DNA from: Candidatus Aenigmatarchaeota archaeon
GTDB lineage: Archaea; Aenigmatarchaeota; Aenigmatarchaeia; Aenigmatarchaeales; Aenigmatarchaeaceae
Reading direction: 5' to 3'
Assembly (NCBI GenBank): GCA_017608545.1
Contig: JAFCFQ010000001.1
Coordinates: forward strand, 1-25,250
DNA: 25,250 nt
Shown in pieces: positions 17,015-20,588 of the stretch; the first letter of the stretch is position 1; each line of letters opens with the position of its first letter. Position numbers and translations under genes: made by a program. Below the pieces are notes generated by a model. That model saw only the letters and a program-made list of their open reading frames with translations, was not told where the DNA came from and did not search any database.

Positions 17015-17427
17015 TGGTTGTTCATAGGAAGAAAAAAATTTTAAAGAAAAGAGGAAGCAGAACATGTGGTTATGGTAGTCATAAAAAGCATAGGGGAGGA
17101 GGTTCAAGAGGTGGAAGAGGAAAGTCAGGAAGGTTTAAACATAAGAAGTCATGGGTTTATAGATACCAACCTGATTATTATGGGAAAAGAGGATTCAAAA
17201 TTCCTCCTAAAGCAAAAAAAGAAGTAAAAGCAATAACTTTGAGAGAGATTGATGTTCTTGCTAAAAAATTAAATAAGACTGAAATTAATCTTTCTGAATT
17301 AGGCTATGATAAAGTCCTTTCAACAGGAAATTTAACTCAAGCATTGACGATAAAAGCAAAAAAAATTGTTGAAAAAGCAAAACAGAAGATTGAAAATGTA
17401 GGTGGAAAGGCGATAGAAAATGTTTGA
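17014..17427 (+). CDS. rpl15: 50S ribosomal protein uL15
   Basis: RGSRTCGYG, RGGGSRGGRG, YGKRGF, KVLSTG, IENVGG. Confidence 0.97.
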   Translation: MVVHRKKKILKKRGSRTCGYGSHKKHRGGGSRGGRGKSGRFKHKKSWVYRYQPDYYGKRGFKIPPKAKKEVKAITLREIDVLAKKLNKTEINLSELGYDKVLSTGNLTQALTIKAKKIVEKAKQKIENVGGKAIENV

Positions 17428-18952
17428 TTTAGTTAAAATTGCATCTTATATACCAACGGTTACACAACCTGTTCAAAAATTAACTTTTAGAGAAAAAGCT
17501 AAATGGACCTTAATAGTTCTAGTTTTATTTTTTGTTTTAGGCTCAATTACAGTTTGGGGAGTTAATCCTAATGCAATTGCAAGATTTGAATTTTTGGAAA
17601 TAGTTTTTGGATCTAGATTTGGTTCAATAATAACTTTAGGTATAGGACCAATAGTTACTGCATCAATAATATTACAGCTACTAGTAGGAAGTAAGATAAT
17701 TAACTGGGATCTGACTAATGAGGAAGACAAGAAAAAGTTTAGTGCCACACAAAAAATATTGACAATTGCATTTTGTTTTATAGAAGGAATAGCTTACGTA
17801 ATTGCTGGCGCAGTCCCTCCTGCAACACCTGATTTTGGTTTAATAGTTTTTATTATCCTACAGCTTTCATTAGGTGGGATAATTATAATGTTTATGGACG
17901 AGGTTGTTTCAAAATGGGGTTTTGGTTCAGGTGTTTCTTTGTTTATTGCAGCTGGTGTTTCTAAAACAATACTTATCAGAACACTAAATCCTTTGACTCA
18001 AGCTGGTACTTTTCCTATTGAGGGAGAATATCCTGCAGGAATAATACCCTTGTTAATTACTACGTTTCTAGAAGGAGCACCAGCTTTTATTAACTTACTT
18101 CCTTTATTGGGGACTATTTTAGTTTTTATAATAGTAGTTTTCATTCAAGATGTAAAAGTTGAAATACCAATGGCATTTTCTTTACCTTTCGGAAAATTTG
18201 CTGCTAGAAGATGGCCGCTAAAATTTTTGTATACATCGAACATACCAGTCATTTTAACTGCTGCTGTTTTGGCAAATCTGCAAGTTATAGGAAGGCTACT
18301 TTATGAAAGAGGAATAACTCTTTTAGGAACTTACAGTGAACAAGGAAATCCAAATCCAGGAAGCTTAATGTATTATTTATCTAGACCATCCGGTGAAATT
18401 GGCATAATAGTGATTACTATAATAAGTAGCATTGTTGCATTATGCTTTGTTGTATTAGCTTTAAGAGTTTGGAAGAAAAATGCATTTAAAATGTGTATTT
18501 TAGGGGCGATTATTGGAATAATATTAGGTTATTTTCTAGTTTCATATTATAATCTCCCAGAAATAACTTTAGATAGTGTATTACATGCTTTAGTTTATAT
18601 TAGTGTTTATGTTATAGGTTCAACAATATTCTCTATTTTTTGGACTGCTACATCAGGTATGGATGCGAAATCAATAGCTGAGCAATTTAAAACATATTTT
18701 ATAATGATTCCTGGATTTAGACATGATCCAAGAATTGTTGAAAAAGTTCTAGATAGGTATATACCAGCATTAACTGTGATGGGTGGAGCATTTATTGGTT
18801 TTTTAGCAGCGTATGCAGACTTAACATCTGCAATTGGGACCGGAACAGGTCTTCTCTTGGCTGTTATGATTGTTTATCAATTTTATGAACAAATAACTTA
18901 TCAACATAAAGAAGACATACCAGCCCCAATTAGAAAATTTTTGGGTGAGTAA
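17420..18952 (+). CDS. secY: Preprotein translocase SecY (Sec61alpha) with an internal hydrophobic insertion
   Basis: LGIGPIVTASII, SKWGFGSGVSLFIAAGV, PLKFLYTSNIPVIL, IPGFR, GTGTGLLLAV. Confidence 0.98.
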   Translation: MFDLVKIASYIPTVTQPVQKLTFREKAKWTLIVLVLFFVLGSITVWGVNPNAIARFEFLEIVFGSRFGSIITLGIGPIVTASIILQLLVGSKIINWDLTNEEDKKKFSATQKILTIAFCFIEGIAYVIAGAVPPATPDFGLIVFIILQLSLGGIIIMFMDEVVSKWGFGSGVSLFIAAGVSKTILIRTLNPLTQAGTFPIEGEYPAGIIPLLITTFLEGAPAFINLLPLLGTILVFIIVVFIQDVKVEIPMAFSLPFGKFAARRWPLKFLYTSNIPVILTAAVLANLQVIGRLLYERGITLLGTYSEQGNPNPGSLMYYLSRPSGEIGIIVITIISSIVALCFVVLALRVWKKNAFKMCILGAIIGIILGYFLVSYYNLPEITLDSVLHALVYISVYVIGSTIFSIFWTATSGMDAKSIAEQFKTYFIMIPGFRHDPRIVEKVLDRYIPALTVMGGAFIGFLAAYADLTSAIGTGTGLLLAVMIVYQFYEQITYQHKEDIPAPIRKFLGE

Positions 18953-19597
18953 ATGAGATTAGTAGTAATCGGTCCACCGGGTTCAGGAAAAGGGACTTAT
19001 GCCTCGAGGTTGAGCCCAATATTAAAGGTACCTTATATATCAACTGGAGATATTTTTAGAGAAAATATAAGCAAAGGAACATCTCTAGGTAAAAAAGTGG
19101 AAAAATTTTTAAATTCAGGTTTACTTGTTCCAGATGATATAACAATAGAAGTTGTGAAAAAAAGATTAAAGGAACCAGATTGTAAAAATGGTTATATTTT
19201 TGATGGTTTTCCTAGAACACTCAAACAAGCAGAAGAATTAGAAAAAATAGCATCTCCAGATGTTGTTCTTTATCTTAGTGTTCCTGAATGGTTATTAATT
19301 AAAAGGATATCTTCAAGAGTAATATGTAAAAATTGTGGAAAAATTTATAATCTCTTAAATGTTAAGCCTAAAAAAGAAGGAATATGTGATGTGTGTGAAG
19401 GAGAATTAATTCAAAGGAAAGATGAAACACCAGAAGCAATTAAAATAAGATTAAATGAATATGAGAAAAAAACAAAACCAATTATAGAGTATTATAATAA
19501 TAAGGGTATATTAAAAATATTTTCAAATGATAAACTTGATTTAAAACCAGAAGAAGGTGTTAAAAAAATATTGGAAATTTTAGGTGTGAGAAAATGA
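18953..19597 (+). CDS. adk: Adenylate kinase, bacterial type with Zn-binding LID
   Basis: GPPGSGKGT, ISTGDIFR, LVPDD, DGFPRT, LID CKNC-x16-CDVC. Confidence 0.96.
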   Translation: MRLVVIGPPGSGKGTYASRLSPILKVPYISTGDIFRENISKGTSLGKKVEKFLNSGLLVPDDITIEVVKKRLKEPDCKNGYIFDGFPRTLKQAEELEKIASPDVVLYLSVPEWLLIKRISSRVICKNCGKIYNLLNVKPKKEGICDVCEGELIQRKDETPEAIKIRLNEYEKKTKPIIEYYNNKGILKIFSNDKLDLKPEEGVKKILEILGVRK

Positions 19598-20031
19598 GCT
19601 TATTAGGTTTGTCAGCAGGCATAGAAGAAATGTTAGTGTCAGCCATTATTATATTTTTTATTACTTTAATTTACAAATTTTTAATAAATCAAGATAAACT
19701 AAGAGAATTAAAAGAAAAACAAAGAGAAAAACAAGAAAAAATAAAGGAATTACAAAAAACAAATCCAGAAGAAGCAAAAAGAGTTATGGCTGAAATGTTA
19801 AAGCTTTCTAACAAACAGCTCAGAATGAGTATGAAACCAATGTTTGTAAGTTTATTGATATTTATTGTAATAGTTTTCCCTATATTACCCAATTTATTTC
19901 CAGGAGTTGTTGTTTATTTACCATTTTCACTTCCATTTCTCGGTAATGATCTTGGTTGGTTAGCTTGGTACATAATAGTTTCAATTCCTTTGAATTCAAT
20001 ATTTAGAAAATTTTTGGGTGTTGAGTTATGA
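19594..20031 (+). CDS. DUF106 / EMC3-TMCO1 (Oxa1 superfamily) membrane insertase
   Basis: TM, cytosolic coiled coil, two further TM segments. MKPM and GWLAWYIIVS motifs. Conserved position after secY-adk. Confidence 0.9.
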   Translation: MSLLGLSAGIEEMLVSAIIIFFITLIYKFLINQDKLRELKEKQREKQEKIKELQKTNPEEAKRVMAEMLKLSNKQLRMSMKPMFVSLLIFIVIVFPILPNLFPGVVVYLPFSLPFLGNDLGWLAWYIIVSIPLNSIFRKFLGVEL

Positions 20032-20273: not shown

Positions 20274-20588
20274 ATGTTAGAGATTGGTAGAGTTTGTATG
20301 AAAATAGCAGGTAGAGAAGCTGGGAAATATGCAGTAATCATTGATAAAATTGATGACAATTTTGTTTTGATAACAGGTCCTAAGTCAATAACAGGTGTTA
20401 AAAGAAGAAAATGTAACATTGATCATTTAGAACCAACTGAACACAAATTCGATATTGACCCTAAAACTGATGATACTTCTATTGAAAATTTATGGAAAAA
20501 TTCTGGTTTAATTGAGAAACTTGGGATAAAACTTCCTGTAAAAAGAGAATTTAAAAAGGAACAGAACGAAACAAAGAAGCAACAATGA
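20274..20588 (+). CDS. rpl14e: 50S ribosomal protein eL14
   Basis: EIGRVCMKIAGREAGK, ITGPK, VKRRKCNIDHLEPT. Confidence 0.96.
   Translation: MLEIGRVCMKIAGREAGKYAVIIDKIDDNFVLITGPKSITGVKRRKCNIDHLEPTEHKFDIDPKTDDTSIENLWKNSGLIEKLGIKLPVKREFKKEQNETKKQQ

Follow-up and report, generated by a model that had tools for sequence, protein, structure and literature searches.

A SecY of twelve membrane helices with a hairpin in outer loop 7 in Aenigmarchaeota

The secY gene, its operon and its core fold

The window, by which we mean the whole stretch of 25,250 nucleotides analysed here, is AT-rich (GC about 30%), and the part around secY is an archaeal ribosomal-protein operon in which L34e is followed by a small open reading frame and then by Cbf5. 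S5, L30, L15, SecY and Adk were identified by Pfam, and secY lies after L15 and before Adk, the operon place that it occupies also in M. jannaschii. The genes are tightly packed: the L15 stop and the SecY start overlap by 8 nt (17420-17427), the Adk start falls directly on the base after the SecY stop (18952-18953), and overlaps of 4 nt join both Adk to DUF106 (19594-19597) and DUF106 to L34e (20028-20031). The small open reading frame between L34e and Cbf5 (20274-20588, plus strand) specifies 104 amino acids and finds no match in Pfam at E 1e-5, and from its position and its KOW-like start it is probably L14e. The features that concern us are the following.

17420..18952, plus strand: secY gene, recognised by its open reading frame, Pfam and Foldseek, in the operon S5-L30-L15-SecY-Adk-DUF106-L34e
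18242..18307, plus strand: core TM7, the C-terminal side of the lateral gate (residues 275-296), an AlphaFold2 helix placed by alignment to M. jannaschii
18365..18379, plus strand: loop-7 mini-helix around YYLS on the outer side (residues 316-320), an AlphaFold2 helix
18389..18559, plus strand: inserted segment (residues 324-380), delimited by the split phmmer match and by alignments
18398..18472, plus strand: extra helix A (residues 327-351), running from outside to inside, AlphaFold2 pLDDT 82-89, Kyte-Doolittle 3.05
18464..18490, plus strand: basic turn R349-K357 (RVWKKNAFK), predicted cytoplasmic from K/R content, with column identities
18482..18547, plus strand: extra helix B (residues 355-376), running from inside to outside, AlphaFold2 pLDDT 77-89, Kyte-Doolittle 2.29
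18503..18529, plus strand: glycine zipper of helix B, G362-x3-G366-x3-G370, lined up along a single face and recognised by its conservation
18569..18652, plus strand: core TM8 (residues 384-411), an AlphaFold2 helix that aligns to M. jannaschii TM8
19594..20031, plus strand: DUF106 gene, EMC3/TMCO1-like (YidC superfamily), two genes downstream of secY, Pfam EMC3_TMCO1 at E 1.6e-15

The product of secY, a protein of 510 amino acids designated P0001, matches the Pfam SecY family (PF00344) with an E-value of 3.5e-65 and 220.8 bits against a cut-off of 32.2, the match covering the profile from end to end (positions 1-306 of 306), and is 39% identical to M. jannaschii SecY. When compared with the M. 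jannaschii SecYE-beta complex (PDB 1RHZ/1RH5), the ten core helices, the plug region, the YYLSxP motif and the GFR loop between helices 8 and 9 can all be aligned, and in a Foldseek search the P0001 model was matched to the chains 1rhz_A and 1rh5_A with E about 1e-25 and a target TM-score of 0.83-0.87. The YYLSxP motif is common to P0001, other archaeal SecY and Sec61-alpha, and the residues P431, G432, F433 and R434 of loop 8/9, which makes the cytoplasmic contact with the ribosome, are invariant in 75 SecY sequences. The Plug_translocon profile attains 19 bits on residues 35-68, its cut-off being 22.1, and this region also aligns well to M. jannaschii SecY. The ten canonical SecY helices are all present, and with two extra ones the count departs from ten: M. 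jannaschii SecY has 436 residues and 10 helices, whereas P0001 has 510 residues and 12 helices.

Structure, topology and conservation of the loop-7 hairpin

The extra material comprises residues S324-P380 of P0001. The YYLSRP motif occupies residues 318-323 and VLHALVY begins at residue 387, such that 63 residues lie between P323 and V387, where a preceding reading of the DNA, made from the sequence alone, had counted about 65; that reading had also held that only a short stretch is present here in a typical archaeal SecY, and M. jannaschii SecY indeed has about 10 residues at the same place. In a phmmer search against all PDB chains the match to M. jannaschii SecY was split into query residues 3-329 and 369-508, leaving some 51 residues of P0001 with no counterpart in that protein.

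Within the insert a hydrophobic run (residues 327-348), the basic string RVWKKNAFK (349-357) and a second hydrophobic run (358-377) succeed one another, as the sequence-only reading had described, and two kinds of prediction concur in its interpretation of the runs as helices. A Kyte-Doolittle 19-mer scan of P0001 yields 12 hydrophobic segments, with the most hydrophobic 19-mer of all (3.05) in helix A and a value of 2.29 for helix B. The modelling of SecY alone that the reading had proposed, carried out with AlphaFold2 on an alignment of 75 sequences (mean pLDDT 79, pTM 0.78), predicts helices at residues 327-351 and 355-376 (pLDDT 77-89), with three residues forming the turn between them. 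Each insert helix, at 22-25 residues, has the length and the hydrophobicity needed to cross the membrane, and the turn contains four positive charges. The SecY of the window is consequently a protein of twelve helices, in which a hairpin occupies outer loop 7 between TM7 and TM8 while the ten core helices are unchanged.

The turn of the hairpin is predicted to be cytoplasmic because it is rich in K and R and contains few D and E. Over 41 insert-bearing SecYs from 22 families the turn contains on average 3.3 K/R versus 0.27 D/E, with never fewer than two K/R, and the flanks of the hairpin in the same 41 proteins are neutral or acidic. In P0001 itself the linker between helix B and TM8 consists of seven residues and is acidic (NLPEITL, then D385), and a 12-helix model of the whole protein places 18 K/R inside and 4 outside. 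These counts agree with both topological arguments of the sequence-only reading, namely that an even number of added helices preserves the topology downstream and that the basic linker is placed on the cytoplasmic side by the positive-inside rule.

The same reading had regarded the hairpin as a selected structure, a view with which the pattern of conservation accords. In 120 close homologues, which share 57-87% identity with P0001, are 500-550 amino acids long except for two shorter and apparently partial ones, and belong to Aenigmarchaeota where named, G362 and G366 are invariant (120 of 120) and G370 is present in 104, while column identities amount to 0.92 for K353, 0.89 for F343, 0.86 for L341, 0.83 for K352, 0.80 for A340 and 0.76 for G370, with A340, L341 and F343 forming a conserved stripe on helix A. 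Across the phylum G366 is retained in 40 of 41 insert-bearing SecYs, and 31 of the 41 have either G or S at position 362. Taken as whole segments, helices A and B are nevertheless the least conserved of the membrane segments, with column identities of 0.43 and 0.41 versus 0.51-0.95 for the core helices. Comparison of the insert with that of a same-genus genome gives 16.5 synonymous and 12.5 non-synonymous differences, and the resulting dN/dS of 0.156 (compared with 0.11 and 0.15 for the flanking parts, all from one genome pair with small counts) is consistent, at the level of sequence comparison, with a hairpin under purifying selection like the rest of the gene.

Distribution, gain and loss within the phylum

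None of the 120 best homologues, which come from independent NCBI, JGI, ENA and Logan assemblies, lacks the insert. A survey of the phylum as GTDB defines it covered 201 genomes from a single class, in which P0001 was matched either whole or in two pieces with the break at residues 325-338, and 65 secY genes of this set were fetched and aligned. The hairpin is carried by 41 of these SecYs, which represent 22 families: f1-f8 (the window's own order), f10, f14, f15, f17, f20-f24, f29-f32 and one genus of f16. Eleven families have a clean short loop in its place, namely f9, f11-f13, the rest of f16, f18, f19 and f25-f28. The hairpin is thus missing from about half of the families of the phylum, which the sequence-only reading had not anticipated, and if genomes are assigned through their families roughly half of those sampled bear it. 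The insertion site is always identical, and the hairpin is retained down to about 45% SecY identity.

This distribution also bears on the most trivial explanation, that of an artefact, whether misassembly, frameshift, chance or a segment that fails to cross the membrane. Misassembly had been named by the sequence-only reading as an observation that would overturn it; the reading frame is uninterrupted, and more than 160 independently assembled SecYs (all of the best homologues and 22 families among them) share the insert. The length of the helices, their Kyte-Doolittle values of up to 3.05 and the four positive charges of the turn argue against a segment outside the membrane. We regard the probability of an artefact as practically nil.

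For a wider comparison, P0001 was searched against 1.84 billion cluster representatives, and 107 full-length proteins among the best 150 of 2003 matches were aligned. The stretch from YYLS to TM8 (query residues 318-392) measures 75 amino acids in P0001 and 21 in most of these archaeal and eukaryotic representatives, while in others it varies from 18 to 58 amino acids without the signature of two helices and a basic turn. Within the same 107 proteins from the best 150 of 2003 matches, that signature recurs only in P0121, P0122, P0125 and P0133, the last of which has Aenigmatarchaeota as its source label, and an equally long segment is thus not typical of archaeal SecY in this sample, in keeping with what the sequence-only reading had expected of such an alignment. 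In P0129, P0141, P0149, P0180 and P0209, which belong to other archaeal SecY lineages, the loop-7 stretch is 46-58 amino acids long and aromatic or proline-rich; such long stretches imply that this loop is a general hot spot for length change.

Other modifications of the same outer region were encountered. In P0133 (NCBI MFH1630843.1; L068:1-1647; MAG GCA_043818435.1) the stretch from YYLS to TM8 extends to 141 amino acids and comprises four hydrophobic helices together with two basic turns, the outer pair of helices being similar to helices A and B in the nearest relative, from family f32. From its sequence, this protein possibly contains a second hairpin nested in the first, with 14 helices in all, the gene being cut at a contig start and known from one contig only. 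A two-cysteine piece, LxCGxLGCFD, occurs in the outer loop after TM7 in many families (L005-L008, L011-L015, L035-L040 and others) and is longer by about 17 residues in the family of L062; it aligns to residues of about 296-305 of the window SecY, from which it is absent, and could, judging by its cysteines, form a disulfide-stapled loop.

How the present distribution arose was approached by means of a SecY tree from which the loop-7 columns had been removed and to which eight outgroup sequences were added. The phylum is monophyletic with respect to the outgroup, and the window's own order constitutes one insert-bearing clade with full support, but insert-bearing sequences are found in all three basal groups. 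On this tree the insert state requires at least seven changes, at least three of them forced by well-supported branches, and a single insert clade is rejected by an AU test (log-likelihood difference 252, p about 5e-116) in which the group was defined after the tree had been seen. Counts alone do not separate gains from losses, and this is a single-gene tree on which transfer or recombination of secY is possible; however, that a homologous hairpin should have been gained several times over at one site is much less likely than that it was cleanly deleted, and the constancy of the site together with the retention of G366 in all but one of the 41 insert-bearing SecYs supports a single origin. What fits best, on the comparison of sequences, is thus one early gain in Aenigmarchaeota with several clean excisions later. 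Since it has apparently been lost repeatedly, the hairpin must be dispensable.

As to where the hairpin came from, the insert alone retrieved nothing from Pfam but a sub-threshold match to DUF1614, and no usable match from the ESM Atlas. One conceivable source is the protein itself, the hairpin being a degenerate internal duplication in which TM8-TM9, a hairpin oriented in the same way, was copied in shortened form. When nine SecY sub-profiles were compared by hhalign, TM8-9 was indeed the best, with helix B and the turn placed on TM9 (score 19.1, E 0.0028), and phmmer put query residues 369-385 on the same M. jannaschii stretch as query residues 318-329. Yet the hhalign probability is only 11%, a value that any two membrane helices may attain, and no similarity was seen for helix A, so that we consider a duplication highly improbable; in any case it concerns the origin only and would be compatible with every functional reading discussed below.

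The hairpin and the lateral gate

The linkers that join the hairpin to the YYLS mini-helix and to the outer end of TM8 are only 6-7 residues long, and because of this the hairpin is expected beside TM7 and TM8; from these short linkers we infer that it adjoins the lateral gate. TM7, TM8 and the loop 7/8 between them move as a rigid body in gating (Itskanov et al., bioRxiv 10.1101/2020.12.14.422728), and Sec61 function suffers when loop 7 is mutated or removed (Tretter et al., PMC3897919). The reading that we favour, while rating its chances a little short of even, is that the hairpin is a built-in accessory pair on the TM7-loop7-TM8 gate unit, one that tunes the channel and is inessential to it. 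The hairpin would lie in the lipid directly against this unit, its two helices packing by their small-residue faces, with the GxxxGxxxG stripe of helix B set against the A340/L341/F343 stripe of helix A, and the KK turn would be held at the cytoplasmic face near the ribosome-binding loops. In this position it might act on the C-terminal jamb of the lateral gate, bracing or biasing it, or, alternatively, offer an extra lipid-facing surface where signal peptides and nascent helices exit. Repeated loss implies that the hairpin can only be a modulator, and any gating effect may be small or absent, as the ten-helix core works without it. A more ambitious version appears to us doubtful: as a regulator or mini-chaperone of the gate encoded in cis, and covalently bound to the mobile TM7-loop7-TM8 unit, the hairpin would determine the extent and the ease of gate opening or would provide a lipid-facing cradle for nascent helices.

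The main rival to a gate accessory is that the hairpin is a tolerated passenger, a neutral structure in a permissive outer loop with no role either in gating or in binding a partner, whose retention would reflect nothing more than the need for a harmless fold in the membrane. In favour of this, losses of the hairpin within the phylum number at least 3 and probably 5-7, no other membrane segments of the protein are as weakly conserved as its two helices, the same loop varies between 18 and 58 amino acids in other archaea, and no core position follows the presence of the insert consistently over five contrasts. In an MI-APC analysis of covariation between insert and core (161 sequences, effective N about 89) the clade signal was dominant, the top pairs combining the clade markers G362, F343 and R349 with variable cytoplasmic loops, and the conserved glycines may serve packing within the hairpin alone. 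What speaks against neutrality is the persistence of the hairpin over a deep divergence in 22 families, the near-invariance of G366 and the strong retention of A340, L341, F343, K352 and K353 in the window's own order, a dN/dS equal to that of the core, and its location where SecY tolerates perturbation least. On balance a mere passenger seems to us rather unlikely.

A different role would be that of a docking platform, with the hairpin and its KK turn recruiting the DUF106/YidC-like insertase, signal peptidase, oligosaccharyltransferase or ribosomal RNA. The inferred position next to the gate would suit such a platform, the WKK/KK turn shows a specificity of conservation beyond what the positive-inside rule alone would require, and the DUF106 gene lies two genes downstream, the circumstance from which the sequence-only reading had conceived DUF106 docking. 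This neighbourhood is however not specific to the insert, DUF106 also following secY in three of the five insert-lacking genomes checked, so that this part of the reading gains no specific support. Neither was a co-varying partner found, and Sec61-beta (PF03911) is equally frequent with and without the insert, being present in 183 of the 201 genomes, in insert-bearing and insert-lacking families alike and in both same-genus genomes. We accordingly regard docking as improbable.

The same frequencies dispose of the idea that the insert replaces Sec61-beta. PF03911 was not found in the window's own genome (G000, 83% complete), probably as a consequence of genome incompleteness, nor in three genomes of family f2 (G001, G039 and G116, 92-98% complete). 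The only SecE-like match in G000 is partial and sub-threshold and lies at the very start of a contig (C31:6-119, L066; E 8.5e-4).

Parallels in known translocons

Two-helix accessories of the translocon are known from other organisms. In E. coli, SecG is a small hairpin of two helices with both ends outside and a cytoplasmic loop, and is a non-essential accessory of SecY; it is a separate protein located on the N-terminal half of SecY, and archaea have the single-helix Sec61-beta in its stead. The orientation of SecG is the same as that of the insert, although no similarity between the two was detected.

The sequence-only reading had drawn its analogy instead with the Sec62 pair (PDB 7KAI/7KAL), a two-helix unit situated before or beside the lateral gate. 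The pair shifts the TM7-loop7-TM8 rigid body, and the analogy with the hairpin might thus be a functional one; however, in Sec62 a lumenal loop joins the two helices and both ends are cytosolic (Itskanov et al., bioRxiv 10.1101/2020.12.14.422728), an orientation opposite to that of the hairpin with its external ends and cytoplasmic basic turn, so that the analogy is a weak one. Moreover, Sec62 forms a subunit of its own that post-translational import cannot do without, whereas the hairpin has apparently been lost repeatedly, and no sequence relation between Sec62 and the insert was found. In eukaryotic Sec61-alpha, by contrast with the SecY described here, lumenal loop 7 is soluble and devoid of membrane helices, with 21 amino acids from YYLS to TM8, and insertions, point mutations and the deletion of this loop alter import, ERAD and gating (PMC3897919).

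In the literature on SecY of Aenigmarchaeota, DPANN and archaea in general we found no description of a SecY with twelve helices or of such an insert, and hence no earlier publication of a twelve-helix SecY with a loop-7 hairpin. SecY/Sec61-alpha is treated as a universal channel of ten helices, and an archaeal lineage with a selected version of twelve helices breaks this uniformity, with consequences also for annotation pipelines and topology predictors that assume ten. The hairpin may serve as a lineage marker within Aenigmarchaeota. Close relatives devoid of it constitute natural matched pairs for the study of gating, signal-sequence stringency and membrane-protein insertion, and channels of 10, 12 and possibly 14 helices make up a ready-made series for the mechanics of the lateral gate. 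Should the hairpin prove to be a cis-encoded regulator or chaperone of the gate, it would do in cis, in archaea of reduced genome, what SecG, Sec62, RAMP4 or partners of the YidC type do elsewhere.
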